Shown here in pieces: positions 3,260-51,861 of a stretch of DNA of 64,000 bases (the first letter of the stretch is position 1; each line of letters starts with the position of its first letter). The translations under genes were made by a program, and so were the position numbers. Source of the stretch: an uncultured Candidatus Saccharibacteria bacterium (GTDB lineage: Bacteria; Patescibacteriota; Minisyncoccia; Phycocordibacterales; UBA12088); NCBI GenBank assembly GCA_964567265.1, contig CAZMLK010000002.1, positions 138,813 through 202,812 of the forward strand, given 5' to 3'. Below the pieces are notes generated by a model. It saw only the letters and a program-made list of their open reading frames with translations, was not told the origin of the DNA and made no database searches.

Positions 3260-4429
3260 ATGCAACCGCTCGCTGCAAAGATCAGGCCGGAATCACTCGA
3301 CGACTATGTAGGGCAGGATCATTTGGTCGGGGCAGGGAAGCCGCTCCGGATCGCGATCGAGAACCAGCACCGCTTCTCATTCATCCTGTGGGGCCCGCCC
3401 GGTTCCGGAAAGACGACGCTCGCGCGCATCTATGCACGTGCGCTTGATGCACACCTCCATGAGCTCTCTGCTGTCTCTGCCGGCAAGGAAGATATCCGTC
3501 AGCTCTTGAAAGAAGATACGGGCGGCAAGCCGCGCGTGCTTTTCCTCGATGAGATCCATCGGTTCAATAAAGCGCAGCAGGATTTTCTCTTGCCGTATGT
3601 CGAGTCGGGCGAGATCACCTTGATCGGCGCAACGACCGAGAATCCGAGTTTTGAAATCATCCCTGCGCTCCTTTCGCGGGCGCGCGTGTTCGTGCTCTAC
3701 GCGGTCTCGCCGGACGGCATGCGCCGCATACTGCATCGTGCCGGATACGACATCCCCGACGAAGCGCTCGACTGGCTCGTGGAGATGGCGAATGGTGATG
3801 CGCGCGCCGCGCTCTCCGTTCTTGGAAATGCGAAGGAGCTCTACGGCGACATCACGCTGTCGTCGCTGAAGGAATCGCTGCAGTCCACCTTCCTCCGGTA
3901 CGACAAGAAGGGTGAGGAACACTACGATACCGTGAGCGCGTTCATAAAAAGCATGCGCGCCTCGCAACCCGACGCCGCGCTCTACTATCTGTCGCGCATG
4001 CTCCAGGGCGGCGAGGACCCGAAGTTCATCGCGAGGCGCATGGTCATCTTCGCGTCCGAAGACATCGGGCTCGCCCAGCCGACCGCACTCGTCGTCGCAA
4101 ACGAAGTCTTCCGCGCGTGCGAGATCATCGGCCTTCCGGAATGTGCGATCAATCTCGCGCACGGCGTCGCGTATCTCGCGCTCGCCAAGAAGGACCGGTC
4201 GGCATACGATGCGCTCCGCGAAGCGGAAGCAGATGCGAAGAAGCACGGCAATCTCCCGATTCCGCTTCCGCTCAGGAATGCGCCGACCAAGCTCATGAAA
4301 GACCTCAAGTATGGAAAGGGGTACGAGATGTACAGTGCCGAATCATTCCTGCCTGAAAAATTAAAAGGAAAGAAATATCTGAAGGACGGCGTTCCGAAAT
4401 CAAAGAAGAAGCCGGATGCTGACATATGA
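3260..4429 (+). CDS. rarA: replication-associated recombination protein A (AAA+ ATPase RarA/MgsA)
   Basis: Walker [17 protein letters not shown], Walker [17 protein letters not shown], MgsA C-terminal helical domains. Confidence 0.9.
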
Positions 4430-6154: not shown

Positions 6155-7684
6155 CTATCTTGCCATCTCGAGCACGCGCTGTTCGCGGATGACCAAGACG
6201 CGGATTTCTCCTGGGTATTTGAGCTCCTGTTCAATCTTGAGCGCGATATTGCGCGCGAGATCGCGTGCTTCAAGGTCAGAGATCGCATCAGGACGTACAA
6301 ACACGCGGATTTCGCGGCCCGCCTGGATCGCATACGCTTTATCGATCCCATTGAATGAGTTCGCGATCGCTTCGAGGTCAGCAAGGCGCTTGATGTAGTT
6401 CTCGACGGAATCGCGGCGCGCGCCCGGGCGCCCGCCCGAAATCGCGTCCGCAACCTGCACGATCACCGATTCGATGGTGTCATACGGATATTCCTCGTGA
6501 TGGGCGCGCATCGCGTGGATGATGGCCTCGCTCGCGCCGAATTTCTGGAGGATGCGGATGCCGATCTCGACATGCGAGCCCTGGACCTCATGGTCGACCG
6601 CCTTCCCGAGATCATGGACGAGCGCGCCTGCCCGCGCGACCGCTGGGTCAGCGCCGAGCTCTGAGGCCAGCATGCCTGAGATGTGCGCCATTTCAACCGA
6701 GTGCTGGAGGACATTCTGGCCGTAGCTGGTACGGAAGTAGAGGCGGCCGAGGACCGCGAGAATGCGCGGGTCGAGGTTGAGGACTCCGGCTTCGTACGCT
6801 GCCTGCTCGCCTTTTTCCTTGATAATGCGGCCAATCTCTTCTTCAGCTTTCCGTACCATCTCCTCGATCTTCGCAGGCTGGATGCGTCCATCGAGTATGA
6901 GGTTCTCGAGCGCGATCCGCGCGATCTGCCGGCGGACCGGGTCGAAGGATGAAAGGGTGATGGTACCTGGGGTATCGTCGATGATGACTTCGACGCCGGT
7001 CGCACGCTCGAAGGCCTTGATGTTGCGGCCCTCCTTGCCGATGATCTTTCCCTTGATCTCATCGTTCGGGATGGTGATGGTGGTCGTGAGCACGTCCGAA
7101 TTCACTGAATTCCCGAGCCGGTGGATGATCGAGGTCAGGATTTCCTGCGCCTTCTTTTCCAACTTCTCCCGTCCGACGCCTTCGAGCTTGCGCATGCGGA
7201 TGCCGAGGTCTTCCTCTTCCTCGCGCTCGATGCGCTTCATGAGCTCGTTCTTCGCTTCTTCGGTCGTGAGCTTCGCAACGCGCTCAAGTGCTGCATGCTG
7301 CTCCTCTTCCGCCTTCGCGATCTTCTCGCGGATGACCTTGATCTCCTCGATCTTCGATTTCACATGCTCGACTTCGCGCGTCACATCATTCTGGCGCTGC
7401 TCGAGGGTCTCCTCCTTCTTGATGAGGCGCTGCTCGCTCTTCTTGATCTCGTCTTCCTTTTCTTTCAATTCCGCGAGCTTCGCCTTCGCGGCGATCTCGC
7501 CCTTCCGCTCGCCTTCGTCGGTCAGCCGCTTCGCCTCCTCCTTGGCTTCGAGCATCATCTTCTTGATCTCGAGCTCGACCGAACCCTTCTTCCCGAGGGA
7601 GACGATCAGGCGGAGGAAGTAGCCGAACCCTATGCCGAAGAGGCCAGCGAGGCCGAGGAGCATCAGTATTAATTTTAGGGACAT
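6155..7684 (-). CDS. rny: ribonuclease Y
   Basis: N-terminal TM, long coiled coil, KH domain (IGKEGRNIKAFERATGVEVIIDD), HD domain (HSVEMAHISGMLA...LVHDLGK). Confidence 0.9.
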   Translation of the reverse strand: MSLKLILMLLGLAGLFGIGFGYFLRLIVSLGKKGSVELEIKKMMLEAKEEAKRLTDEGERKGEIAAKAKLAELKEKEDEIKKSEQRLIKKEETLEQRQNDVTREVEHVKSKIEEIKVIREKIAKAEEEQHAALERVAKLTTEEAKNELMKRIEREEEEDLGIRMRKLEGVGREKLEKKAQEILTSIIHRLGNSVNSDVLTTTITIPNDEIKGKIIGKEGRNIKAFERATGVEVIIDDTPGTITLSSFDPVRRQIARIALENLILDGRIQPAKIEEMVRKAEEEIGRIIKEKGEQAAYEAGVLNLDPRILAVLGRLYFRTSYGQNVLQHSVEMAHISGMLASELGADPAVARAGALVHDLGKAVDHEVQGSHVEIGIRILQKFGASEAIIHAMRAHHEEYPYDTIESVIVQVADAISGGRPGARRDSVENYIKRLADLEAIANSFNGIDKAYAIQAGREIRVFVRPDAISDLEARDLARNIALKIEQELKYPGEIRVLVIREQRVLEMAR

Positions 7685-8019: not shown

Positions 8020-8607
8020 CTATTTCTTCGACTTGTGGATCTCGTCGATGATGCCGTATTTCTTTGCCTCGTCCGCGTCCATGAAGTAGTCACGGTCGAC
8101 GTCCTTCTCGATCTTCGAGAGCGGCTGGCCGGTAGCCTTCGAAAGCATCTTGTTGAGGCGGTCCTTGGTCTTCAGGATCTGCTTCGCGGTGATCTCGATG
8201 TCAGTCGCCTGGCCCTGCGCGCCGCCCCATGGCTGGTGGATCATGATTTCGGCGTTCGGGAGCGCGTAGCGCTTGCCCTTGGCACCGCCGGCAAGGAGGA
8301 TGGCCCCGCCTGAAGCCGCGATGCCGACGCAAACCGTCGCGACATCCGGTTTCACGTAGTTCATGGTGTCGAGCATGGCCAGGGTCGCGGTCACCGAGCC
8401 GCCCGGAGAGTTGATATAGAGGAAGATGTCTTTCTTCGCATCCTCGCTCTCAAGGAAGAGAAGTTGGGCGATCACGAGGTTGGCGGTCGTATCCTCAATC
8501 GGGCCGCCCATGAAGATGATGCGGTCGCGGAGCAGGCGGGAGTAAATGTCGTATGCGCGCTCGCCAAATGGCGACTTCTCGATGACGGTGGGTACCAGAT
8601 AGCTCAT
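8020..8607 (-). CDS. clpP: ATP-dependent Clp protease proteolytic subunit
   Basis: [26 protein letters not shown]...[14 protein letters not shown]...MIHQP, full ClpP signature. Confidence 0.92.
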
Positions 8608-8732
8608 ATATTGAATGATTAGGTGGCTAGTCGTGTCGTTCGTGTGGGCAGTGTATCAAATTCCGCTAATTTCGGGAATCCAAAAGAAGAATGCCCGGGC
8701 GCTGACGCGCCGGGGCACACATGCCGACATAT

Positions 8733-9392
8733 TTAGAATTCCGCCGTTCTCACCGAGCTCCGGGGACCAATGCTCGGAACCTCCTCGATCGTAGAGTACA
8801 GACAATCGATGCGGCGGATTACTTCCGCAGTGCCGACTGCCCACTGGTGAGTGACCCACCCGTCTCCTTCCCAAATCTGCATATTGCTTCCGAAGAAAGT
8901 GGGGAGGATGCGCATGTACAAAAGTGGGAGACGAGCATGATCGTGCTCTTCAGCGTACGGATTCCGCGTCCGTAGATCAAGGAAGACCACGATGCCTTCG
9001 GCGACCACCCACTTTCCGTCCACGCGCGTGTGGACCGGAGAACCCTCGATTTCCCAGGACACCGTTTGCCCGCGCTGCCTTATGCGCACGCTTGCTCGCC
9101 GCTCGAGGTTGTCGAGCGAGGCTAAGAGCGTTCCTTTGAGAATTTCAGCAGACCGGGTGGCGGTTCTCTTGAGAAGCCAGAATTTGAACCGATTTTGTAC
9201 CTGCTGTATGCCTCCGAATCGTATAGCCGCACCAATGGCCGTGGAAAATATCCCGAGAAAAAAAGCATAGTACGAGAATATGCCCCCTCCGTAGCCGATT
9301 CCGTCCCGATAGAGGGGAAAGCCGAGCAGCACGGCACCAAGAAATAAGGGTCCATAGCCAAAATCTCGTGTTTGCATCGGAAAGTCCTCCAA
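8733..9392 (-). CDS. hypothetical membrane protein
   Basis: Two N-terminal TM helices (GPLFLGAVLLGFPLY, YYAFFLGIFSTAIGAAI) then soluble domain; no recognisable motif. Confidence 0.45.
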   Translation of the reverse strand: MEDFPMQTRDFGYGPLFLGAVLLGFPLYRDGIGYGGGIFSYYAFFLGIFSTAIGAAIRFGGIQQVQNRFKFWLLKRTATRSAEILKGTLLASLDNLERRASVRIRQRGQTVSWEIEGSPVHTRVDGKWVVAEGIVVFLDLRTRNPYAEEHDHARLPLLYMRILPTFFGSNMQIWEGDGWVTHQWAVGTAEVIRRIDCLYSTIEEVPSIGPRSSVRTAEF

Positions 9393-9473
9393 CCACCGCC
9401 CCCAATAGCGGGGCCGATATCTGGTCTGAGGTGACTATACCTTCAGCGCCATTAATTTCAATAGGCAAGCTAC

Positions 9474-9504
9474 TTGACTCTGACGTTGCGTGATAGTTTA
9501 TGCT
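9474..9504 (+). promoter_or_regulatory. MerR-type promoter TTGACT-N19-TATGCT upstream of the merR/tipA-like gene
   Basis: -35 TTGACT (9474-9479), 19-nt spacer, -10 TATGCT (9499-9504); the 19-bp spacer is the hallmark of MerR-regulated promoters. Confidence 0.35.
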
Positions 9505-9561
9505 CTGGTAGGGTGAGGTCGTCACTCAATATAGGAGTATCAGCCGGAGTCTCGCATCGAC

Positions 9562-10320
9562 ATGTACTACACCGTCCAACAACTTGCTACGCTCGCGAAT
9601 ATCAGCGTGCGCACGCTCCATCACTACGATGCGATCGGGCTTTTGCGGCCCTCGCGCGAGGAGAAGAACGGCTACCGCCGCTATGGGGAGGCAGAACTCC
9701 TTCGGCTCCAGCAGATACTCTTCTTCCGAGAGCTCGATTTTCCGCTTCCGGAGATAAAAGTAATCCTTGCTTCACCCACCTTCGACATGCGGGCAGCGCT
9801 CCGGGACCAGCGGAATCTCATCGAGATCAAGAGGAAACGTCTCACCGACCTCATGCAGACGATCGACGAGACGATTACCAGACTCAATACCAACAGCAAT
9901 ATGGACGACAAGAAACTCTATGACGGGTTCGATACCGGGGAGCAGGATCAATATGCGGACGAGGTGAAAGCGCGCTGGGGCAACACCGAAGCATACAAGC
10001 AGTCCAAGGAACGGACCAAGAACTGGACCAAGGCCGACTACGATCGGCTGAAGCAGGATGCTGACACCTGGATGAAAGCATTCGTGCTTGAGGTGCCGAA
10101 AGGCGCGAAGAGCCCGGAGGTGCAGAAGATGATCGCCGAGCATTACAACGCGCTCCGCAAATTCTACGAGCCGAACCTCAAGATGTACCGCGGCCTCGCC
10201 GACATGTACGTCGATGATCCGCGTTTCAGTGCCTACTATGAGAAGTACATGCCCGGGCTCGCGCTCTTCATGCAGGAGGCGATGCATTTCTACGCGGATA
10301 CTGAGGAGGCGAAGCAATAA
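9562..10320 (+). CDS. MerR-family transcriptional regulator with TipAS-like C-terminal domain (TipA/Mta-like)
   Basis: MYYTVQQLATLANISVRTLHHYDAIGLL HTH, coiled-coil dimerisation, C-terminal TipAS-type domain. Confidence 0.85.
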   Translation: MYYTVQQLATLANISVRTLHHYDAIGLLRPSREEKNGYRRYGEAELLRLQQILFFRELDFPLPEIKVILASPTFDMRAALRDQRNLIEIKRKRLTDLMQTIDETITRLNTNSNMDDKKLYDGFDTGEQDQYADEVKARWGNTEAYKQSKERTKNWTKADYDRLKQDADTWMKAFVLEVPKGAKSPEVQKMIAEHYNALRKFYEPNLKMYRGLADMYVDDPRFSAYYEKYMPGLALFMQEAMHFYADTEEAKQ

Positions 10321-10383
10321 GCCGAAGACCCCGGCAAAACAAAAAGCCCTTCAGGGCTTTTTGTTTTGCCGGGGTCTTCGGCT
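10321..10383. terminator. long perfect inverted repeat (29-bp arms) forming a bidirectional terminator between the convergent merR-like and SET genes
   Basis: gccgaagaccccggcaaaacaaaaagccc-ttca-gggctttttgttttgccggggtcttcggc. Confidence 0.6.
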
Positions 10384-10774
10384 ACCGATAGTACGCCGCC
10401 TTCTCGTCTTCCGGCTCTTCGAGCGAGTTGTAGTCGATCAGGATTTCCTCGTCAGCCGCGATGTCGCGTGCAGCGAAATAGAGGAAGTCCGTATGGATCG
10501 CATTCGGCTCTTTCGAATGGTTCAGATACCAGCCGATCTGCATCTTGCCGAAATCCATCGGGCAGTGGAGCTCATTACCTTCGATGATGCAGTGCTGGAT
10601 GAATGATTCCGGGATATCGCTCCGCTTCAAGATGCGTACTTCCTCGCCCGCGTCGGCATGATCGCCGAAGAGTCGGAGCGGAGCGCCCTTTGCGATTGCA
10701 TGGGTCGCGAAGACGCCGACGCCGTGAGCGCCGGGCCTGAGGACGAATGAGAATTCAGTGGTCGTTGTTTCCAT
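10382..10774 (-). CDS. SET-domain protein (putative protein-lysine methyltransferase)
   Basis: GWYLNHSKEPN matches the NHSCxPN SET motif; EEILIDY matches the EELxxDY post-SET motif; 130 aa. Confidence 0.65.
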   Translation of the reverse strand: METTTTEFSFVLRPGAHGVGVFATHAIAKGAPLRLFGDHADAGEEVRILKRSDIPESFIQHCIIEGNELHCPMDFGKMQIGWYLNHSKEPNAIHTDFLYFAARDIAADEEILIDYNSLEEPEDEKAAYYR

Positions 10775-10843
10775 GAGGTCAGTATATACAATCCCCCGCC
10801 GTTTTTGCTTCGCAAAAACGGCGGGGGATTGTATTTCCTCTAA

Positions 10844-11410
10844 CTATCGAATCCCGCTGTCACACGAGATATGCGCCTCGGTCGCTTGTCCTGCGGTGAC
10901 GGTTATCATCACATCCATGCAACTCGGAAGCACTTCAGCAGCTATGGGGTGGAGCGTGTATGCGCCTGGGGCGAGCGATACCATGAACCTGCCGGACTTG
11001 TCGCTTTTCACGGTCCCTGCGAGTACCATCGACTCCTGCCGATATATCTCAATTGTGGTGGAGTACGGCCGCGGCGCGCAGCCTGGCTCCGGCGGCACCC
11101 TCTCGACAGGGCATGTCGGCGAGACATCGACAAGACCGGTCACATCGCCCTTGGCGACGGTGCTGCCGATGCGGCCGGTAGTGCCTGCGGAGGTGCCAGG
11201 GCACTCAGCAAAGCTGCAGTTCGGGCCCGTGCGTCCAACGGAGCTTCCATCGGGGCATATCTTCGCATCAGCATCGCAGACCTGGCCGCCGATTACGTCC
11301 GGTCCGGGTGCCATCGCGTGACGGACGCTCGCACCATAGAGGGCGAAGATGCCGACACAGAAGAGAAGGAGTCCCGATACGATGATGCCGAATAAATGCT
11401 TGTGGTTCAT
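10844..11410 (-). CDS. secreted/anchored protein with N-terminal Cys4 module (C-x6-C-x12-C-x4-C) and C-terminal beta-sandwich (carboxypeptidase-regulatory/Cna-B-like) region; paralog B
   Basis: Signal-anchor LFGIIVSGLLLFCVGIFALYGA; motif CDADAKICPDGSSVGRTGPNCSFAECPG; later GTVKSDKSGRFMVSLAPGAYTL. Confidence 0.65.
   Translation of the reverse strand: MNHKHLFGIIVSGLLLFCVGIFALYGASVRHAMAPGPDVIGGQVCDADAKICPDGSSVGRTGPNCSFAECPGTSAGTTGRIGSTVAKGDVTGLVDVSPTCPVERVPPEPGCAPRPYSTTIEIYRQESMVLAGTVKSDKSGRFMVSLAPGAYTLHPIAAEVLPSCMDVMITVTAGQATEAHISCDSGIR
11196..11290. repeat. nucleotide-level repeat copy 1 (encodes the Cys4 module of paralog B)
   Basis: 32-nt exact identity (cactcagcaaagctgcagttcgggcccgtgcg, 11202-11233) with 11453-11484, about 80% identity over roughly 95 nt; third diverged copy at 18086-18180. 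Confidence 0.7.
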
Positions 11411-11682
11411 TGGATTTCGATTGATCCTTCAACGGCGGCGCCAGCTCCCGGACACTCAGCAAAGCTGCAGTTCGGGCCCGTGCGGCTTACATAACTTCCA
11501 TCCGGGCACTGCTTCGCGTCCTGTGTACAGATCTGACCGCCCGTGAATTCCTCGGGACCATTTCCTATCCCGCGATTTACCTTTGCCGCATAGAGCGCGA
11601 GGACGCCGACCCCGAAGAGAAGGAGGCCGACCACGATCATGATAAAGAGTGAATGAGGCTTCATGCGGGTCATACGATTCAA
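11407..11682 (-). CDS. small (91 aa) secreted/anchored Cys4-module protein; paralog A
   Basis: Signal-anchor then CTQDAKQCPDGSYVSRTGPNCSFAECPG; 4-nt overlap (ATGA) with the downstream paralog B. Confidence 0.6.
   Translation of the reverse strand: MNRMTRMKPHSLFIMIVVGLLLFGVGVLALYAAKVNRGIGNGPEEFTGGQICTQDAKQCPDGSYVSRTGPNCSFAECPGAGAAVEGSIEIQ
11447..11541. repeat. nucleotide-level repeat copy 2 (Cys4 module of paralog A)
   Basis: See copy 1. Confidence 0.7.
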
Positions 11683-11684
11683 GA

Positions 11685-12074
11685 TTACGAAATAAGGGTA
11701 CTAAAATATCCCTGCGAGAAATATGCACCTGCGAGGCCGACAATGACCGCGACGACGAAGTACGCGAAACTCTTGAGAGTCCGGACCGACGACAGCTGCC
11801 TGACGACCATGCCCCCCAAGGGAGCAAGGATGATGTACGGGGCCGCCATTGTCGCGAATCCGTATGCCGCCATCTGTCCGCCATTATAGCCTGAGAGCTT
11901 GATAATTTCCCCGGCCAGCTTCGATCCATACTCGAGGACCTCCTTCGGGCCGAAGAAGAGCATGAGACCGGCAACGAATCCGAACGCGATATTGATAATG
12001 ATGCTGAGCAGGTTAGTTTCATCCGGAGACGCGAACGCATTCGGCATCATGGGGTTCATCTGGAACGGGTCCAT
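11685..12074 (-). CDS. small hypothetical membrane protein (3 predicted TM helices)
   Basis: Hydrophobic segments IINIAFGFVAGLMLFF, AAYGFATMAAPYIILAPLGGMVV, YFVVAVIVGLAGAYF. Confidence 0.5.
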   Translation of the reverse strand: MDPFQMNPMMPNAFASPDETNLLSIIINIAFGFVAGLMLFFGPKEVLEYGSKLAGEIIKLSGYNGGQMAAYGFATMAAPYIILAPLGGMVVRQLSSVRTLKSFAYFVVAVIVGLAGAYFSQGYFSTLIS

Positions 12075-12175
12075 ATAGGTAGAGTATATTGGCGAACCAC
12101 TGTTTCAGGAACAGGCGTTATGCACCGAGAGGGGGAGCATTGCATGCGCACCCGTTCGGCATATACTGTCGGCAT

Positions 12176-12526
12176 ATGGAAACAAACACACAGATGGTGC
12201 CGCACAACATGGTGACGACAGGCTTCGAGCTCCCGGAGCACAAGGTCATTAAGAACCTCGGGATGACGCGGGGGATTGTCGTCCGCTCGCGCTCGATCAT
12301 CGGCTCGATCGGTGCCGGCCTCCAGACCATCCTCGGCGGAGACATCACCCTCTTTACCAGTCTCTGCGAGAAGACGCGCGAGGATGCGTACAATCTCATG
12401 CTCCAGCATGCTGCTGCAATGGGCGCGAACGCGGTCATCGCGGCCCGCTATGACGCCACCGAGCTCGGCGGCGGCATCACCGAAGTCCTCGCGTACGGCA
12501 CGGCAGTTGTTGTGGAGTCGAAATAG
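12176..12526 (+). CDS. YbjQ/UPF0145 family protein
   Basis: [86 protein letters not shown] is the typical YbjQ fold sequence; start trimmed to METNT. Confidence 0.75.
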
Positions 12527-12539
12527 TTTCCGTACGTTT

Positions 12540-12583
12540 GAAACGGCAGAAGCCCGCGCGTGAGCACGGGCTTCTGCCGTTTC
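12540..12583. terminator. hairpin gaaacggcagaagcccg...cgggcttctgccgtttc after ybjQ
   Basis: 17-bp stem. Confidence 0.5.
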
Positions 12584-12602
12584 AACACATCCAAAATAGA
12601 AA

Positions 12603-12628
12603 GCCCCGGATGCGTGCGCATCCGGGGC
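12603..12628 (-). terminator. hairpin gccccggatgcgtgcgcatccggggc with T-run on the minus strand, downstream of ORF 12646-13326
   Basis: 10-bp GC stem, preceded on the plus strand by aaaataga. Confidence 0.5.
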
Positions 12629-12645
12629 CACTTCACGATCTCGAT

Positions 12646-13326
12646 TCAGCTTCCAGTGCGGACGGTTCTCCCGCCATCGATCACTTGAAGTTGAGTGGAA
12701 CTATTCGGCGCGAGTAGTTGGTTATAGAGACTCTCCAGAGCCGCAATCGCCTTCGGGTAGGTGGGATACTCGCTCCAGCTCTTCCCGTCCCAGATCCACC
12801 ACGTACGTCTTTCCGAAATGGTGCTCGAGTTAAGCGGGAGCACTTGCACCCGGATCAATTCCTGCGCCCTCTGAAGAGGATCGCCGTTGCTGTTTCCGGG
12901 GTCCGGCACCTTGTAGGTGAGGGAGATACGGAACTCTTCACCTTGGAGCCACTGCCTGGTACTGCTCCGGCGGTCGAGTAGTGCGACGGGGATGCCGACG
13001 CACTTCAAGTGGATTGATGTCGAATGGGGGAAGTTGGCCTCCCATCGTTTCTCGACTCCCCTGGAGAAATCGACCAAGGCTTCCTCAAGAAGTACCGCGG
13101 TCCGTTTCGCCGCATATGATCGTTTGAAATACCCGAAGGTGTTTCGGAACATCCGGGCCCACTTGGGGTACGTGGCACTAGCGAGCGACATGCCAGCCAA
13201 TGTCCAGGTGTGCCAAGTAAAGCCACCTGACCAGGTCCACTTGGCGGTAGAGGCGAAGAGAAACCCAAGCAGGATTGAACCCATGATGTAGGCATTCTGC
13301 TCAACCCAGTCACGCAGAGCGTCCAT
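12646..13326 (-). CDS. hypothetical protein with N-terminal TM/signal
   Basis: ILLGFLFASTA hydrophobic start, Trp-rich; no recognisable motif. Confidence 0.5.
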   Translation of the reverse strand: MDALRDWVEQNAYIMGSILLGFLFASTAKWTWSGGFTWHTWTLAGMSLASATYPKWARMFRNTFGYFKRSYAAKRTAVLLEEALVDFSRGVEKRWEANFPHSTSIHLKCVGIPVALLDRRSSTRQWLQGEEFRISLTYKVPDPGNSNGDPLQRAQELIRVQVLPLNSSTISERRTWWIWDGKSWSEYPTYPKAIAALESLYNQLLAPNSSTQLQVIDGGRTVRTGS

Positions 13327-13385
13327 TCACATTCCTCCAGTCGGGCCGACCTCACCACGAGGTGGCGTCTGAATCTGTCAGGATT

Positions 13386-13410
13386 TTGACATATTCCTAA
13401 GAAATGTCAA
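13386..13410. promoter_or_regulatory. perfect palindrome TTGACAT-N11-ATGTCAA in the promoter region of ORF 12646-13326
   Basis: 7-bp inverted half-sites, each containing a TTGACA -35-like hexamer. Confidence 0.3.
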
Positions 13411-13422
13411 ATAGTCGGAGCT

Positions 13423-13944
13423 TTACGGCACGTAGATTTCCTCGATCTTCGTCACGATGTTCCCTTGGACCGTGAGGTGGTAGGGAAGGGTGTTCCAGTG
13501 GAGGGACTTGTCGTCGATGAGCTTGGCGAATGCCGCAATGTCGATCTCGTGCGGAGCGACACCCTTGGTCTCCATGTCCAAGGTCTGCATGATGACTTTC
13601 GCAGACGGGCTGGTCTCATAGAGAAGCGGGGTCGAGGTCGACGGGTTGTCGATGAAGTAGTCATTCGGGAGGCATTCATCGCGTGTTTCCTCGGTACAGA
13701 CGCCGGCCCGGATCGCCGCATCCTCGCCCGCCTTGCCCGAAAGCCACTCGGCTTCATCAAACGCGATCCGGACATCCTTCGAGGTATCAACGTAGCGGAT
13801 GAATCCGAGCGTCGTGGTCGCGCTCTCAGTGTCCTCAGGAGTCGGCACCTCAGCCTGCTGCTTGAGAGTGTTCGCATACCAAAACCCAGCTCCAGCGATG
13901 CAGAGGATGAAAAGCGAAGCAGATAGAAAAAAGCGTTTAGACAT
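13423..13944 (-). CDS. hypothetical secreted protein
   Basis: Signal peptide MSKRFFLSASLFILCIAGAGFWYA; the ATG sits inside the terminator hairpin of the upstream gene; ORF-track TTG start at 13950 is also possible. Confidence 0.5.
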   Translation of the reverse strand: MSKRFFLSASLFILCIAGAGFWYANTLKQQAEVPTPEDTESATTTLGFIRYVDTSKDVRIAFDEAEWLSGKAGEDAAIRAGVCTEETRDECLPNDYFIDNPSTSTPLLYETSPSAKVIMQTLDMETKGVAPHEIDIAAFAKLIDDKSLHWNTLPYHLTVQGNIVTKIEEIYVP

Positions 13945-13964
13945 GTACAAAGTCTAAACGCTTT
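13930..13964 (-). terminator. 13-bp perfect hairpin aaagcgtttagac-atgtacaaa-gtctaaacgcttt followed by T6 on the minus strand
   Basis: Terminates ORF 13986-14624; its loop and left arm overlap the start codon of ORF 13423-13944. Confidence 0.55.
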
Positions 13965-13985
13965 TCCAAAGACTGGCTATAGATT

Positions 13986-14624
13986 CTAATCAAGCAATTT
14001 GAAGCTTTTCCAGATCCGATCAAGATCTGCCATCGGAATTCCGCGTGTCGTTATGCGGTAAAAATATCCTTTCCAAATGAAAAGTGTTGTGCGCTCCTCA
14101 TCTTGCTCAGCCACGGTATGTACGGGATCTTTGGACATGTCGAACTTCCTCGTCAACGCAGGAACGCCAGAAACGGTCGTCTGCCCGATAAGATAATTTT
14201 CTTCATTGCCAACCCAGTGGTGGTATTCATCCGACAGTGATCCAGTCGCTGCTTGGGAGTTTACGGTAAGGATCCTCTCCTTCCCGGTCATATCATTTGC
14301 AATGAGCGCATAGGATGTATATTGATTCGGGTCGCCTTCGCCTACTAACATGCCGGAGGGGCGAAATTCCATATCGGAAGGCGCGTCAACGGAAAAGTGA
14401 AGAAAGTCATTTTTGTAGCGAACCCATTCACTAGAGAGCTGGGTGGATGACCCAGTGAATGATGTCGGAAGTTCATCTGCGCGTAATGTCCGACTTCCTT
14501 GCATACTCACACTCTGTGGAGCCTTACCAGAGTTCATTTTTGCAGCGAAATAAATAATACCCCCTGCGATAACGAGGGCCCCGAGAAAAATAAATGTAGC
14601 GACGCTGAGGTTTGATTTTTTCAT
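13986..14624 (-). CDS. hypothetical N-terminally anchored protein (low-GC island gene 1)
   Basis: MKKSNLSVATFIFLGALVIAGGIIYFAA anchor; about 45% GC versus about 60% background. Confidence 0.5.
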   Translation of the reverse strand: MKKSNLSVATFIFLGALVIAGGIIYFAAKMNSGKAPQSVSMQGSRTLRADELPTSFTGSSTQLSSEWVRYKNDFLHFSVDAPSDMEFRPSGMLVGEGDPNQYTSYALIANDMTGKERILTVNSQAATGSLSDEYHHWVGNEENYLIGQTTVSGVPALTRKFDMSKDPVHTVAEQDEERTTLFIWKGYFYRITTRGIPMADLDRIWKSFKLLD

Positions 14625-14692
14625 GTGGATGCAATGATAGCAATAAGAAATTTTGGATTTAAAAAAAGTAGTTGCCCTATCTTACATGGAAC

Positions 14693-15553
14693 TTAATGCA
14701 ATTCGACATGTCCAAATGGTGATTTTTCCACTCTAACGCAAGGCAATGTCTGGGCAATTTCGTTGATCGTTTCCAATTGCGCTTGGCTCTTGGATGGGGG
14801 CCATGCTCCCTCAATCGACAATGCCCATTCACCCACATCCTCCAAAACATAAGTGTAAGTCACTATTTTTGCACCTCGTTTCTCGTGGATGATGATGGTT
14901 TGCGTCGTAACCTCTTTGATGGAGTCAACCAACTGCTGAACGACCTCACTGCGTGCATCTGGTGGAATTTCAAAAATAATGCTTGGCGCGTCAGCAGTTG
15001 TTGCTCGGTCGTAGTAGGAAGTCACTACTGCAATATTCCTTGAGTCAATTTTCTTACTGGTGATTGATTTCCAGATTGCAATAATTATTCCGTCTCGCAC
15101 TATTTCCCACATTGCTGAATCTATATCAGCTTGAATGTGAGCAATGGCCCAGTCTTTTATAGGAATGAGTATTGTTATGGCGTGGGAAGCGAAGTCCACC
15201 AGACCTATCATTTCTGCGCTCACCCCTCCTCCATATCCATGGGTATGCCAATTTAGCTCGTATTGATACTTCCCATCTATGTGTTCTTTGGCATGCTCAA
15301 CAGCCGCATCATCCACAATTGTCACCTCCAACCCCGTTTGTTTTGAGGTCAATTCAGAGACTAAGGGTGTAAGTAGGGAGTTCTCGATTTTTATGCGAAG
15401 TTTCAAGTCCCCGTTGCCAATAATGTTCTGGGCCGATTCTCTTGCCGCCTCAAGTTCTGCGTAATATTTTTGTGAAAAATCAAACACTCTAGCAGATTTT
15501 CGCTGTTCTAGGATACGGAGTAAAAAATTTTCGAGTTGTTCAAAAATTCGCAT
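14693..15553 (-). CDS. hypothetical cytoplasmic protein (low-GC island gene 2), contains NWHTHGYGGG motif
   Basis: 286 aa, no TM, no recognisable family; lower GC than surroundings. Confidence 0.5.
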   Translation of the reverse strand: MRIFEQLENFLLRILEQRKSARVFDFSQKYYAELEAARESAQNIIGNGDLKLRIKIENSLLTPLVSELTSKQTGLEVTIVDDAAVEHAKEHIDGKYQYELNWHTHGYGGGVSAEMIGLVDFASHAITILIPIKDWAIAHIQADIDSAMWEIVRDGIIIAIWKSITSKKIDSRNIAVVTSYYDRATTADAPSIIFEIPPDARSEVVQQLVDSIKEVTTQTIIIHEKRGAKIVTYTYVLEDVGEWALSIEGAWPPSKSQAQLETINEIAQTLPCVRVEKSPFGHVELH

Positions 15554-15594
15554 ATATTCGTAAACAGGCCTCCTTGCGGAAGCCTGTTTCTTTT

Positions 15595-16746
15595 CTACTC
15601 TTCTTTTTTGTCAGCTTTGCCTTCGAGGATTTCAAACACTTTCTCGTTACGCATGATGGTTTCGACGTACATGCGGACCGAGTCGGGGTTTGCTTCCTTG
15701 TAGTGCTCGAGGACGTGGTTCACGTCGCGGGCGACCTTGTCCTCAGGGAGGAGGATGGTCTCCTTCTCGCTGATCGCGTTCAGGATGAGCTGGAGCTTGG
15801 CGCGCTTCTCGGCTTCTGGCTCCCATTCCTTGCGGATGTCCTCAGGCGATTTGCCGAGGTGCTGGAAGTAGGTTTCCGGCTCGACGCCCATGCGCTCGAT
15901 CTCGGAGCGGAACTCGCCCATCATCTTGTCGAGCTCTGAGTCCTTGAGGATCTTCGGGAGGGCGATCGTTGCTTTCTCGACGAGCGCTTCGACGATGGCG
16001 AGGCGACGCTTCTCCTTTTCCTTCATTTCTTTCTCGGATTTGATGTTCTCACCAATCTTGGTGCGGAACTCGGCGACGGTGCCGAATGAGCCGAGCTTCT
16101 GGACGAACGCGTCGTCGAGCGCAGGAAGGTCCTCGTCCTTGATGTCGCTGCCGTCGTGCGCGCCGTGTTCGCCGGCTTCGTGACCTTCTTCGTCCTCATG
16201 CGCGTGATGCTGCTCGTAGTGCGCCATGCGGCGGCGGATGGCGAGAATGGCCTCATCCACTTCTGCTTCGGTTGGGTCGGCGACCGTGCTCTCCATCTTC
16301 TTCACGATCTTCTCGGAGATTGCCTTGTAGTCGGGGAGCTCGAAGGTCGGGACGACCGCCGTTTTCGCGACGAAGGAGACGGGGTTGCCGCGCGCGAGCT
16401 TGGTGATCGAGATATGCGGCCGGCCGATCACATCGAGCTCGTTGTCGATGATGATCGCGGGATACACGTCGGCGAGCGCTCGCTCGGCCATTTCTTCCAT
16501 GATCGCCATCTCGCCCACCTGCTTCACGAGCACCTCCTCAGGAACATGTCCTTTGCGGAAGCCGTCGATCTCTACCCGCTCGCTGACATACTTCACGGCC
16601 GCCTTCCGGTAGCTGTTGATGACTTCGACCGGGATATCGCCGCGGATTTCAAGCTCTGACTGCTCGAGCTTGATGATCTCGAGGTTGGTATATGGCTGAT
16701 TTCCTGGCTTCTTTACTTCGTTTGTTTCCTCGTGTGAGTCTTGCAT
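15595..16746 (-). CDS. tig: trigger factor lacking the PPIase domain (His/Glu-rich linker instead)
   Basis: Ribosome-binding signature GFRKGHVP in the N-domain, TF C-terminal chaperone domain; middle region HYEQHHAHEDEEGHEAGEHGAHDGSD replaces the FKBP domain. Confidence 0.8.
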   Translation of the reverse strand: MQDSHEETNEVKKPGNQPYTNLEIIKLEQSELEIRGDIPVEVINSYRKAAVKYVSERVEIDGFRKGHVPEEVLVKQVGEMAIMEEMAERALADVYPAIIIDNELDVIGRPHISITKLARGNPVSFVAKTAVVPTFELPDYKAISEKIVKKMESTVADPTEAEVDEAILAIRRRMAHYEQHHAHEDEEGHEAGEHGAHDGSDIKDEDLPALDDAFVQKLGSFGTVAEFRTKIGENIKSEKEMKEKEKRRLAIVEALVEKATIALPKILKDSELDKMMGEFRSEIERMGVEPETYFQHLGKSPEDIRKEWEPEAEKRAKLQLILNAISEKETILLPEDKVARDVNHVLEHYKEANPDSVRMYVETIMRNEKVFEILEGKADKKEE

Positions 16747-16828
16747 AGGCCCGACTATAGCAGAAAAACCACGCGCCCGTCCATGTGTGGACGGGCGCGT
16801 GGTTTTCGTCTATTTCAGGTCGTGGACA

Positions 16829-17269
16829 CTAGTTCCCGGACGTAGTATTGACTCCCTGCATGTCGCCATCGAGCGATTCGACATTGGTTGCGTTCAAGTC
16901 TGCTTCGATCGATGAGGTCTCGTCTGACGAGCTCTGCGTTTGAAGGGCTTTCACTGCCGGATCCTCTGAAGCGCCATTGCTGGTGCTGGTCGGCGGCGTC
17001 TGCGCCTTCTGATCTGGGACCGCACTGTTCTGCTCGTCGGAGAGCATCTGCTGGTTGAGGCGCATGCCCCAATAGTAGAGGCCTCCGATCGCGACCAGTG
17101 CGACGATGATGATCGCGCCGATCATCTGGCCGACGCTCGAGGAACCTTTCGGTGCCTCTGGAGGGGCGGCAGGCGGGACCATCATGTTCGGCACGCTGGT
17201 CGCCGGGGCAGGGGTTGGCGCTGCGGGAGCCGGAGCTACTCCTGGGGCGGAAGGCGTTTGTTCGTCCAT
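16829..17269 (-). CDS. hypothetical membrane protein with Pro/Ala-rich N-terminus
   Basis: APAPAAPTPAPATS low complexity, one TM (IGAIIIVALVAIGGLYYW), Ser/Thr-rich tail. Confidence 0.45.
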   Translation of the reverse strand: MDEQTPSAPGVAPAPAAPTPAPATSVPNMMVPPAAPPEAPKGSSSVGQMIGAIIIVALVAIGGLYYWGMRLNQQMLSDEQNSAVPDQKAQTPPTSTSNGASEDPAVKALQTQSSSDETSSIEADLNATNVESLDGDMQGVNTTSGN

Positions 17270-17295: not shown

Positions 17296-18285
17296 CTATT
17301 CACCGGCATGCTCACCCTCATTGCTCTCCCTAGTCGTCGTCGCGGTCGGAGCTTTTTTCTTCGGTTCGAACGTTTTGAGGAGTCGGACGGCAGCTTCGAG
17401 CTCGCTCTGCGCTGTCTTCAGGTTCCCCTTGATGCTCTCGACAAGGTCGCGCACCTTCGAGAACTCGCCTTCAGGATCATCGGATGCAATCACGGTGGCG
17501 AAAGTCGTCTTGATGTTCCCGATGCTCGACTGTGCTGCCGCAAGCGCTGCGCGGGCAGTGATGACATGGGACTTCGCTTCCCCGACATCCTTGCCGTCGG
17601 CTTCAAGCTTCGCGATCCGTGAATCGATACGGTCTGCGATCTTGAGGAGGCGGCCGTACGCGACATCGAGGCGCGCGGCGACATGGCTCACTTCATCGGC
17701 AACCTTCGCCTTTATGCGCTCCCTTGTCGACGACGCGATCTTCTGCCACATCTCCTGGCGCTTCTCGCGAAGCTCATCGAGCGGTCCGCCGTTCCCCTTC
17801 ATCTGGCCAGGGAATACTGCTGGCCGCGTGCCGGTCGCCATGCCCGGCTTGGTCGTTGAGGCCATGCGCATGCGCATCTCCTTCTCGCGCATTTCCATCA
17901 TATTTGAAGCCGTCGTTGATGCTTGGATCTTCTTCAACATCTCTGGGGTCGGCTTCTGGAGCGGACGATTCGTCGTTGACCCTTCTGATCCCCTTGCCGG
18001 CGGCATCGGAGGCGGGGGTACGTCGCCCTCAACATGGTCTCCGCCAGTCCGTGCTCCCGTCGGAGGCTTCGCGGTGGCCGCTCCCGGACACTTCGCGAAT
18101 TCGCAGTGCGGGCCGGTGCGTCCGACGGCGCTGCCGTCTGGACACATCTTCGCTTCCGCGGTACAGATTACGCCGGCACTCGCGTCGGCGTCCGCCGTCT
18201 CGTCAGCAAGCGCGAACGATACGCCGAACAAAAAAACAAATCCAATGGACAGGAAAGTACTGCCCAGTACGCGCATTCTCGTCAT
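17296..18285 (-). CDS. secreted Cys4-module protein with long coiled-coil/Met-rich C-terminal region; paralog C
   Basis: Signal peptide, then CTAEAKMCPDGSAVGRTGPHCEFAKCPG, then Pro-rich spacer and alpha-helical heptad region. Confidence 0.6.
   Translation of the reverse strand: MTRMRVLGSTFLSIGFVFLFGVSFALADETADADASAGVICTAEAKMCPDGSAVGRTGPHCEFAKCPGAATAKPPTGARTGGDHVEGDVPPPPMPPARGSEGSTTNRPLQKPTPEMLKKIQASTTASNMMEMREKEMRMRMASTTKPGMATGTRPAVFPGQMKGNGGPLDELREKRQEMWQKIASSTRERIKAKVADEVSHVAARLDVAYGRLLKIADRIDSRIAKLEADGKDVGEAKSHVITARAALAAAQSSIGNIKTTFATVIASDDPEGEFSKVRDLVESIKGNLKTAQSELEAAVRLLKTFEPKKKAPTATTTRESNEGEHAGE
18086..18180. repeat. nucleotide-level repeat copy 3 (Cys4 module of paralog C), more diverged
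   Basis: gcagtgcgggccggtgcgtccgacggcgctgccgtctggacacatcttcgc aligns with copies 1 and 2. Confidence 0.55.
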
Positions 18286-39049: not shown

Positions 39050-39055
39050 GGCTCC

Positions 39056-39105
39056 AAAACAAAACCCCGCCGCAAGCACTCGTGCTTGCGGCGGGGTTTT
39101 GTTTT
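39056..39105. terminator. bidirectional terminator aaaacaaaaccccgccgcaagcactcgtgcttgcggcggggttttgtttt
   Basis: 16-bp GC stem with AAAACAAAA/TTTTGTTTT arms. Confidence 0.65.
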
Positions 39106-39108
39106 GGC

Positions 39109-49803: not shown

Positions 49804-49915
49804 CGTACCATCCGATCTTCAAAATGTAAATAAATATCTTCGCCCTCTGTGCGTAGACCGAGGGCTCCGTCGTTCCATGGTTCCTGAAAGCCGTTTGGTG
49901 CTATGCTACGGAGTC

Positions 49916-50377
49916 ATGAAGCAGAAGCTGAAAGCGCTATTCAAGTTCGCCTCCCCGGCCATCCTGCTGGTATTCCGGACGTACTACTTCATCTTCCGCC
50001 CGAAGGGGGAGAGCGTGAAGTGCGTGATCCGGAACGGTGGCAACATCCTCCTCATCCGCAATTCGTACGGCGCGAAGTTCTGGACGCTTCCCGGTGGCGG
50101 CGTGAAGTCGAGCGAGACCCTGGAACAGGCGGCCGTCCGCGAAGCACATGAGGAAGTCGGCATCGAGATCCGCGAGCAGGACCTCACCAAGCACGGCAAG
50201 GTGCGCTACCTCCTCGACTTCCGCCGCTCCACGGTCTGGGTGTTCAGCGTCACGGTGCCGTCTCCCGCATTCCACCTTCATGGCGTCGAGATCGAGGAAG
50301 CGAAGTGGTTTCCCGAGAACGCAATCCCCGGCATGCGCTCGCATCTCCTGGAACGTTTCCTCGATTTGGCGAAATAA
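49916..50377 (+). CDS. Nudix hydrolase (island gene d)
   Basis: Nudix box GGGVKSSETLEQAAVREAHEEVGI (Gx5Ex7REUxEExGU); start trimmed to MKQKLK. Confidence 0.75.
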   Translation: MKQKLKALFKFASPAILLVFRTYYFIFRPKGESVKCVIRNGGNILLIRNSYGAKFWTLPGGGVKSSETLEQAAVREAHEEVGIEIREQDLTKHGKVRYLLDFRRSTVWVFSVTVPSPAFHLHGVEIEEAKWFPENAIPGMRSHLLERFLDLAK

Positions 50378-50433: not shown

Positions 50434-51069
50434 ATGACTAGGTCCACAGAGGAATCACTTGAAATCATCTCAAACCAATTTGTCGTGAAGCGTCGGTTTA
50501 CCACGGGTACATTCAACCTTATATTGGGTGCGGTACTAGGCGCCACTTTGACTTTTTTAGTAGGAGCTATTAATTCTTACATCTCCAACCAAACCTTACG
50601 TCAAGCGGTTGCAAAGAGCATCTACATTGAAATTGAGCATAATAAAATTTTTTTAAATAGCTCTGTATCTGATTTAAACAGCGCAGTTTTAGATTGGAAA
50701 GGCAACAAAGGAAATAAATTAAATATGCAAGTATTCGCCCTGCATAGAGAAGACTTCTACCAAATTTATCTCCAAGATTTAACTCTATTAGATAAAAACA
50801 CTCTAGATGAAACCTACGAATTTTACGGAAGACTTAGGACCATTGATTACCTAACAAAATTAATCACTGATGATTTTGATCTCTATTACAGAAATGAAAA
50901 TCTAATTTCTAGAGCTGATATCTTGTCCCGACTAATGGAATTACAGCAGGATGTGGATGAGGCGCTTCGGAATGCTGACAAAATCCAAAGAGATTTAATT
51001 ACTAAATATGATGTTAACAGTGTTCAGAGTTCCTGTAATCCAACCAATTGTCTAACAAACTCTTGGTAA
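50434..51069 (+). CDS. hypothetical protein with N-terminal TM, very low GC (about 38%) (island gene e)
   Basis: Asn/Ile/Leu/Tyr-rich, AT-rich codons, in strong contrast to the about 60% GC host. Confidence 0.5.
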   Translation: MTRSTEESLEIISNQFVVKRRFTTGTFNLILGAVLGATLTFLVGAINSYISNQTLRQAVAKSIYIEIEHNKIFLNSSVSDLNSAVLDWKGNKGNKLNMQVFALHREDFYQIYLQDLTLLDKNTLDETYEFYGRLRTIDYLTKLITDDFDLYYRNENLISRADILSRLMELQQDVDEALRNADKIQRDLITKYDVNSVQSSCNPTNCLTNSW

Positions 51070-51249: not shown

Positions 51250-51861
51250 GTGAAATTCATCCTCGGCACAAAAGAAGAAATGACGCAGGTCTTCGATGAG
51301 AAGGGCGTCGTCCACGCAGGAACCATCCTCAATGCAGGTCCTTTGACCGTCACCAAGGTCCTCACCAAGGACTCTGACGGATATGAGGCAGTCCAGGTCG
51401 GATACGGCGTCCGCAAGGAAAAGCATGCATCGAAGCCAGTCATGGGCCAGACCAAGGCGTTCGGTATCTTCCGGACCCTCAAGGAGTTCCGCGATGTCGA
51501 GGGCATGACCGCAGGCGACAAGATCGATGTCTCGGTCTTTGCCCCAGGCGACACCATCCAGGTCTCAGCGATCTCGAAGGGTAAGGGCTTCCAGGGCGTC
51601 GTGAAGCGTCATGGTTTCCATGGCGGTCCGCGTTCGCACGGCCAGAAGCACTCCGAGCGCTCCCCGGGTTCTATCGGCGGCGGCGCGCGTGCCGGAGGCC
51701 GTGTCGCGAAGGGCATGAAAATGGGTGGCCGCATGGGTACTGACCGCGTCACGGTCAAGAATCTCAAGGTGCTCGTTGTCGATGCTGCCGCGAACACCAT
51801 CATCGTGTCAGGAGCCGTTCCGGGTCGTCGCGGAACGCTCGTTGAAGTAGTTTCAAAATAA
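51250..51861 (+). CDS. rplC: 50S ribosomal protein L3 (GTG start)
   Basis: MKFILGTKEEMTQVFDEKG... Confidence 0.9.
   Translation: MKFILGTKEEMTQVFDEKGVVHAGTILNAGPLTVTKVLTKDSDGYEAVQVGYGVRKEKHASKPVMGQTKAFGIFRTLKEFRDVEGMTAGDKIDVSVFAPGDTIQVSAISKGKGFQGVVKRHGFHGGPRSHGQKHSERSPGSIGGGARAGGRVAKGMKMGGRMGTDRVTVKNLKVLVVDAAANTIIVSGAVPGRRGTLVEVVSK

Follow-up and report, generated by a model that had tools for sequence, protein, structure and literature searches.

Why does a short stretch of AT-rich DNA lie directly behind the trigger factor gene of a patescibacterial genome, and how did it come to be there? The question is raised by 64,000 nucleotides of an uncultured Candidatus Saccharibacteria bacterium (GenBank assembly GCA_964567265.1, contig CAZMLK010000002.1, positions 138,813 to 202,812 of the forward strand; this whole stretch is called the window, and its own numbering is used throughout). 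Two unannotated genes, orfA (13986..14624, 212 amino acids) and orfB (14693..15553, 286 amino acids), lie here between the trigger factor gene tig (15595..16746) and g13423 (13423..13944), which encodes an N-anchored protein of 173 amino acids. All four genes are on the minus strand. An earlier reading, made from the sequence without database searches, placed both open reading frames correctly and described them as a low-GC two-gene island bounded by perfect hairpins. The region is best explained as a strain-variable accessory-gene slot, a hotspot of horizontal transfer after tig in an uncultured genome of the Patescibacteria (candidate phyla radiation), and we give this explanation a probability of about 0.8.

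Slot contents and junctions in close strains

The segment 13951-15594 has a GC content of 44.5%, compared with 56.8% for the 64-kb window. Composition is far from uniform: among sliding windows of 1670 bp, the one starting at 13901 is the lowest in GC of the whole 64 kb (mean 0.567, SD 0.031). The values are 47.3% for orfA, 43.8% for orfB, and 32.4% for the 68-bp spacer between them (14625..14692, minus strand), against 56.4% for g13423 and 58.1% for tig. The earlier estimate of about 45% for the two reading frames therefore holds, while the 60% assumed for the flanks was too high (about 57%). GC at third codon positions (GC3) is likewise low in orfA (0.488) and orfB (0.425) compared with 0.69-0.84 in five neighbouring genes, so that the drop is not merely an effect of amino-acid composition.

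The two genes are not conserved at the locus: the position is filled differently in closely related strains, which agrees with a foreign origin of the segment. Mutually unrelated AT-rich genes occupy one and the same slot, the flanks are 88-95% identical, and the breakpoints are sharp. Four strains show four different slot contents, and their tig genes (L001, L036, and L038) are 88.5-95% identical to that of the window at the DNA level. The window shares its content, orfB followed by orfA, with L002, an independent Logan assembly that has the same arrangement across both junctions and thereby excludes a chimera. L036 and L037 (contigs of SRR31757429/30, reached via the 90% cluster that contains tig) follow the window in two collinear blocks, 18391 to 15562 (93.3% identity) and 13908 to 11455 (88.4%); in the second block, g13423, g12646, ybjQ, and g11685 form the downstream flank (88%). 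Between these flanks lies a single unrelated gene for a protein of 354 amino acids, with a GC content of 0.42 compared with 0.56-0.59. L001, a Logan contig of SRR14932526 that was found through the orfA homolog P0003, shares the 3′ half of tig with the window (95.1% DNA and 99% protein identity) and becomes unrelated three bases after the tig stop, at breakpoint 15592. It continues with a hairpin of its own, an unrelated 194-amino-acid gene, an allele of orfA, the left hairpin of the window, and the start of g13423; after the orfA stop, 74 of 81 bases are identical in both. L038, a contig of GCA_020050275.1, matches the window at 88.5% down to 15562 and then runs into another AT-rich sequence.

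The breakpoints thus fall at 15562 and 15592 on the tig side and at 13908 on the distal side. The variable segment delimited by the strain comparison (13909..15561, a feature without strand, GC about 0.44 against 0.57) is almost exactly the interval that the sequence-only reading had marked. In the comparison with L036, the putative recombination junction falls within the start of the g13423 coding sequence. The first 12 codons (13909-13944) belong to the variable segment and are completely different in the window (MSKRFFLSASLF) and L036 (MFLRNTVPLILL, positions 3993-4028), and from ILCIAGAG onward the two proteins are near-identical. An exact look-up of g13423 returned the same contig only, and the JGI metagenomes contained no close tig relative (best 46%).

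The genes on both sides of the slot are conserved among the compared genomes (tig on one side; g13423, g12646, ybjQ, and g11685 on the other), and the gene content between them differs among close strains. The interval harbors no recombinase, transposase, or phage gene, which places it with the hotspots that are free of mobile elements. In the Pfam search, no recombinase was present among the genes examined between clpP and ppa (8.0-18.9 kb), and orfA and orfB have no match in PHROGs. No direct repeats flank the slot and no tRNA gene is near it, the only one in the window being located at 1714-1785. The lack of tRNA, repeats, and recombinase, together with junctions that vary by strain pair, argues against a self-mobile element. 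The cargo probably stems from donors of lower GC content, likely other Patescibacteria, and would have been exchanged by homologous recombination via the conserved flanks rather than by a site-specific element. In this reading, the slot extends from the final base of the tig terminator into the 5′ part of the backbone gene that follows.

Hairpins at the two ends of the slot

Both hairpins named in the sequence-only reading are present, but they are not repeats that mark the ends of an island. Judging from their consensus matches, both look like ordinary transcription terminators, the right one that of tig and part of the conserved backbone, the left one part of the orfA module, and such hairpins follow most genes of the window. 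In the left hairpin, the arms 13929-13942 and 13952-13965 form 14 perfect pairs instead of the 13 counted earlier (16 when two G·U pairs are included) around a loop of 9 nucleotides. On the minus strand, the AT-rich stem is followed by a tract of six U. The complete element (13923..13967) folds at −22.9 kcal/mol with a z-score of −6.33, and none of 200 shuffled sequences is as stable. A 16-pair stem and a U tract are what is expected of an intrinsic terminator, and the proposal that this hairpin doubles as one is well supported. The start codon of g13423 was said to lie in its loop, which applies to the A and T of the ATG (13944-13942); the G already belongs to the 3′ arm, as its first base. 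M-S-K-R-F-F, codons 1-6 of g13423, is encoded by this arm together with the U tract, and the import of the terminator may in this way have rewritten the N-terminus of the neighbouring protein. The hairpin is absent from L036, and in L001 it is changed only in the loop and in the base pair at the base of the stem. Only the AT-richness of its stem sets it apart, as would be expected had it arrived with the imported DNA.

The right hairpin (15562..15589, minus strand) starts 5 nucleotides after the tig stop and pairs the arms 15562-15573 and 15578-15589 in 12 base pairs around a GCAA loop (−20.9 kcal/mol, z = −6.25). It belongs to tig, with which the earlier reading had it shared, but is not perfect: one pair is G·U on the minus strand and A·C on the plus strand, which indicates that the hairpin is built for the tig transcript. 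It is identical in L036 and L038 and is replaced by a different hairpin in L001. The sequence that follows it is UUUACGAAUAU in the window and UUUCUUUUC in L038; only UUU precedes ACGAAUAU in the window, and L036 has UUUUC at this point.

Neither hairpin has a second copy in the window, and they are not copies of a repeat family. A scan for stems of at least 10 bp and loops of 3-10 nucleotides finds 35 perfect hairpins in the 64 kb and practically none in shuffled sequence. Those near the locus are located at gene ends (16765-16806 upstream of tig, 12603-12628 after g12646, and 10320-10383), and since hairpins follow most genes, finding one at both ends of the gene pair is expected. The stems in the window measure 10-30 bp, and many hairpins are GC-rich with runs of A and T at their sides (e.g., 10320-10383, 16765-16806, and 39054-39107), so that by sequence they look like bidirectional terminators. 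An Rfam scan of 13300-16900 returned no match.

No hairpin separates orfB from orfA (fold z = +0.62). The spacer instead contains a promoter-like site at 14663-14634, TTTAAA-18-TATCAT with a preceding TG, which was detected in a promoter scan as a consensus match. About 22 nucleotides before the orfA ATG are common to the window and L001, including the −10-like box (TATCAT/TACTAT). orfA would accordingly be transcribed from this promoter-like box of its own and stopped by its own strong terminator. For orfB, expression by read-through from tig is most likely, as its start lies 8 nucleotides past the tig hairpin, which leaves no room for a promoter, and as the U tract of the terminator is lost here. 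With a putative promoter box and a predicted terminator of its own, orfA has the makings of a separate module, and the cargo of the window appears to consist of two independent modules instead of one unit.

The cargo genes and the rival explanations

The N-terminus of OrfA carries two lysines followed by 23 hydrophobic residues, as read from the sequence. This segment, which had been recognised as an N-terminal anchor before, reads as a signal anchor and would be followed by an extracytoplasmic domain. The only homolog is P0003, encoded in L001, with 54% identity in a gapless alignment. Between these two alleles, the proportion of differing synonymous sites (pS) is 0.76, which is saturated, and the nonsynonymous distance (dN) is 0.37; for tig in the same pair of strains, the synonymous distance (dS) is 0.27 and dN is 0.004. 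In the last 32 codons of orfA, the protein is near-invariant (proportion of differing nonsynonymous sites, pN, 0.066) and the synonymous sites are fully different. The dN/dS ratio below 1 and the conserved C-terminus point to purifying selection. Saturation next to a tig dS of 0.27 implies alleles that are far older than the divergence of the backbone, and hence replacement by transfer and not rapid local evolution. The best family match of OrfA, AsqO_C with 16 bits, is below the cut-off of 27, and PADLOC yields no match. OrfA may be described as a membrane-anchored extracytoplasmic protein and, tentatively, as a polymorphic cell-surface component. A paralogous relationship between orfA and g13423 was considered and rejected (E 1.5), and viral contigs contain no relatives of orfA or of the 354-amino-acid gene of L036.

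OrfB shows no hydrophobic segment comparable to that of OrfA, in line with the soluble protein expected earlier. The statement that neither protein matches a known family remains valid for Pfam, NCBIfam, PADLOC, and PHROGs at threshold and for protein sequences of the PDB. It needs amendment for OrfB, which has 16 further distant matches (17 sequences with OrfB itself) among all 1.84 billion representative proteins and forms a sparse unannotated family. These relatives reach E-values down to 7e-15 with listed identities of 22-34%, and OrfB is the sole member of its own 90% cluster. The family alignment comprises 15 sequences, i.e., OrfB and 14 relatives, as two long, multi-stretch matches were left out. 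No Pfam family is common to any two of the 15 members. A profile search with the alignment in a word-indexed database recovered two members only, and the alignment is too divergent for a scan of viral contigs. The best sub-threshold matches of OrfB are FANCI_S2 (12 bits) and PADLOC PDC-S26 (E 0.016, 12 bits).

Within the alignment, a Gly-rich stretch with an invariant G109 corresponds to the NWHTHGYGGG motif noted earlier and is followed by a hydrophobic stretch. The pattern W135-x3-H139-x3-D-x-D-x3-W149-x3-K/R is conserved, as are P190, F194, P197, and W243. AlphaFold2 gives an unusable model from the single sequence (predicted local distance difference test, pLDDT, 35) and a confident one with the 15-sequence alignment (pLDDT 79, predicted template modelling score 0.76). 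The latter has a long N-terminal helix and two α/β domains, and it matches no known fold. Confidence is low at residues 106-114, so that the Gly-rich stretch looks like a flexible linker. A nucleotide-binding loop in NWHTHGYGGG was rejected, because the motif aligns with this variable, low-confidence stretch between the modelled domains. The pattern W-x3-H-x3-D-x-D did not hold as a catalytic motif either, since its His and Asp are replaced in P0006 and P0004; it serves as a lead only.

The relatives of orfB are found in varied surroundings. In L027, a gene for an Mrr-like nuclease follows 23 bp downstream, and NUDIX and Fic/RhuM genes are near. The relative in L028 has a gap of 6 nucleotides to its upstream gene and is flanked by a class II tRNA synthetase (ProRS) on one side and by a Ser-hydrolase and a Pol-beta nucleotidyltransferase on the other. 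In L039 the gene lies upstream of rplJ-rplL, and in L041 among unannotated genes, which were rejected as tandem paralogs (no HMM match). In L040 (2064-2981 and 5699-7012), which belongs to an unrelated metagenome-assembled genome (MAG) of low GC, the relative is accompanied by a Bro-N gene and precedes tig-clpP-rny by 2.7 kb on the upstream side; this second association of the family with a tig neighbourhood may be a coincidence. The orfB-family gene has a higher AT content than the DNA around it in each of the six genomes examined, which marks it as a mobile accessory gene. The model weakly suggests that OrfB is a two-domain α/β protein of this mobile, Patescibacteria-associated family. Relatives beside Mrr-like nuclease, Fic, nucleotidyltransferase, and Bro-N genes hint at a role in conflict or defence, which is a tentative and rather doubtful assignment.

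The proteins of the other cargos, with 354 (L036), 194 (L001), and 180 amino acids (the gene after tig in the more distant L003), match nothing at threshold in the family and PDB sequence searches. The L001 allele of OrfA has a 12-bit match to CARF_HEPN in PADLOC (E 0.021), and the remaining alternative cargos have none there. The 180-amino-acid protein contains, by reading of the sequence, an RNGVLH (R-x4-H, HEPN-like) motif and has a sub-threshold match to DUF4145 (E 0.035). The 194-amino-acid protein (L001, 741-1325) starts with a twin-arginine-like signal (TRRNVL...AKA) and, by reading only, combines a Cys (SCKEW) with a His (PHTAIVV) in a way that recalls NlpC/P60-CHAP hydrolases. A perfect inverted repeat of 15 nucleotides connects the two genes of the window (14130-14144, TTTGGACATGTCGAA; 14702-14716, TTCGACATGTCCAAA; palindromic core GACATGTC). 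The arm within orfA codes for the conserved motif KFDMSK, and the other is at the 3′ end of orfB; the rough chance expectation is about 0.003 for the 2.7-kb region.

Some observations weigh against a hotspot that is exchanged through its flanks. Just four strain variants were recovered, and two of them, L001 and L038, come from short contigs that do not reach across the entire slot; no empty variant was seen, so that the differences may reflect gain, loss, or replacement. The guesses at function are weakened by the lack of a significant PADLOC match and by orfB neighbours that differ at every locus. Most pointedly, three cargos begin at the same nucleotide (15561/15562), which also fits site-specific insertion at the hairpin. 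A recombinase or transposase from another locus would then have placed the cargo at the 3′ foot of the hairpin that terminates tig, resembling integron attI/attC recombination or hairpin-targeting insertion sequences. The unrelated cargos of the window, L036, and L038 all diverge right after ...GGCCTGTTT, the cargo genes are co-oriented with tig, and the space before orfB is too short for a separate promoter. Capture nevertheless seems unlikely: the L001 junction is elsewhere (15592), with the hairpin itself replaced, and the distal junctions differ, at the orfA stop in comparison with L001 and at 13908 inside g13423 in comparison with L036. The cargo ends carry no repeats, neither hairpin occurs twice, the genes examined between clpP and ppa encode no recombinase domain, and the orfB relatives elsewhere are not located behind hairpins (the gap in L028 is 6 nucleotides). 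Replacement mediated by the flanks also produces a shared boundary, which is expected where selection on the common flank reaches no further than the terminator. A bolder version makes the base of the tig hairpin a dedicated landing site, where promoterless genes are captured behind the terminator of a highly expressed housekeeping gene by a hairpin-directed mechanism acting in trans, and makes the orfB family a travelling cargo that may represent a novel fold and a new protein of defence or conflict. The common junction of three cargos and the orfB relatives by ProRS (L028), by rplJ-rplL (L039), and near tig (L040) suggest this idea, which we likewise consider improbable.

A joint function of orfB and orfA, for instance as a toxin-immunity or defence pair that arrived together, would account for two adjacent AT-rich genes on the same strand, and the combination of a cytoplasmic and a membrane-anchored protein resembles some two-component conflict systems. 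But in L001, orfA occurs without orfB and is paired with the unrelated 194-amino-acid gene, the orfB relatives at six other loci have no orfA-like neighbour, and the genes are divided by a 68-bp spacer with a promoter-like box that is conserved in L001. As PADLOC also gives no significant match, a single unit is very unlikely, and the two-gene unit of the sequence-only reading is abandoned. Least credible of all is a native origin, with fast evolution or an unusual composition as the whole explanation, or a chimeric assembly. The proteins do contain much Ile, Lys, and Asn, and this depresses GC at codon positions one and two, but GC3 is low too. Base-sharp breakpoints delimit non-homologous replacements, the synonymous sites of orfA are saturated beside a tig with a dS of 0.27, and both the independent L002 assembly and the 242-kb NCBI contig have the same arrangement.

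The slot in its lineage and among known systems

The slot is the part of a larger variable interval that is nearest to tig. The product of tig itself, the conserved upstream flank, matches TIGR00115 (1.3e-58) as well as Trigger_N and Trigger_C, and Parcubacteria-type MAGs preserve the gene order ppa, g17296-like, g16829-like, tig. Seven relatives have clpP directly behind tig: RNase Y and HU come next in L005, L011, L014, and L015, and the continuation is different in L006, L007, and L012. The suggested synteny check therefore finds tig beside clpP in more distant relatives. In the window, about 7 kb of lineage-specific genes (8608-15594) separate tig from clpP (8020..8607, minus strand, 83% identity to the ClpP of L003), and rny (6158-7648) lies beyond clpP. 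This interval encodes several N-anchored proteins, YbjQ, a SET-domain protein, and a TipAS/MerR regulator, and only the 1.65 kb beside tig are still compositionally foreign. The closest catalogued genome, L003 (tig 65% identical), has 2.5 kb between tig and clpP, and its gene right after tig (7122-7664, 180 amino acids) has a GC content of 36.6% compared with about 49%. The adjacency to clpP in distant relatives and the AT-rich gene after tig in L003 indicate that the tig-clpP gap gains accessory genes in this lineage, and the position beside tig holds those that are compositionally foreign.

Several other features of the window were observed. Its trigger factor (383 amino acids) consists only of Trigger_N (22-167) and Trigger_C (223-363), with no PPIase domain detected and a His/Asp/Glu-rich linker (HYEQHHAHEDEEGHEAGEHGAHDGSD) in the gap; it is shorter still in several relatives (319-321 amino acids). 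The minus-strand genes 10844-11410, 11407-11682, and 17296-18285 encode three N-anchored paralogs that share the Cys-rich motif CPDGSxVGRTGPxCxFAxCPG right after the anchor and have no Pfam match at threshold. A second low-GC patch (about 41%) covers 50.5-51.5 kb. Its open reading frame 50434-51069 on the plus strand encodes 211 amino acids with one hydrophobic segment and no Pfam match, and its neighbours are rplC (51250-51861) on one side and, as read from the sequence, a NUDIX-like gene (49877-50377) on the other. Here, too, a single gene may have been inserted beside a housekeeping operon.

Hotspots without mobile-element genes that recombine at flanking core genes are established across bacteria (Oliveira, Touchon, Cury & Rocha 2017, PMC5635113). 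The slot after tig shares with them a fixed interval between conserved genes, a quick turnover of cargo, the lack of an integrase or transposase, and an exchange that is inferred to run through the flanks. It differs in that the statistical definition used there needs many genomes, compared with four variants here, and in its small-genome patescibacterial host and its size of one or two genes, all unannotated. As in the defence-island hotspots of E. coli (PMC10121019), one position receives different small accessory modules in each strain, and some orfB relatives lie beside Mrr-like, Fic, and nucleotidyltransferase genes; unlike there, no cargo matches a known defence family, and a defence role is a guess. 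Integron cassettes are comparable as short, co-oriented, AT-rich genes, at least one of them without room for a promoter, that are located by a hairpin with a recurrent junction. In contrast to integrons, no intI occurs among the genes examined at 8.0-18.9 kb, and the slot hairpins look like terminators instead of imperfect attC sites with conserved core sites, with no GTTRRRY core in either of them by reading the sequence. Moreover, there is one hairpin at each end of the slot instead of one behind every cassette, and the distal junctions vary. With classical genomic islands the slot has its anomalous composition and its strain specificity in common; it departs from them in its lack of tRNA, integrase, and direct repeats and in its length of just 1.65 kb.

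The phenomenon is therefore of a known kind, and no new kind of genetic element is revealed. New are its occurrence in a patescibacterial genome, an unannotated family with a confident model of unmatched fold, and the polymorphic pair of putative surface-protein alleles. The locus defines the small unannotated orfB family and, with orfA, a polymorphic locus for a putative surface protein. Even a small, streamlined genome of the Patescibacteria keeps a fixed slot for the turnover of strain-specific foreign genes, and in episymbiotic organisms such a slot is a plausible place to seek surface and conflict functions.

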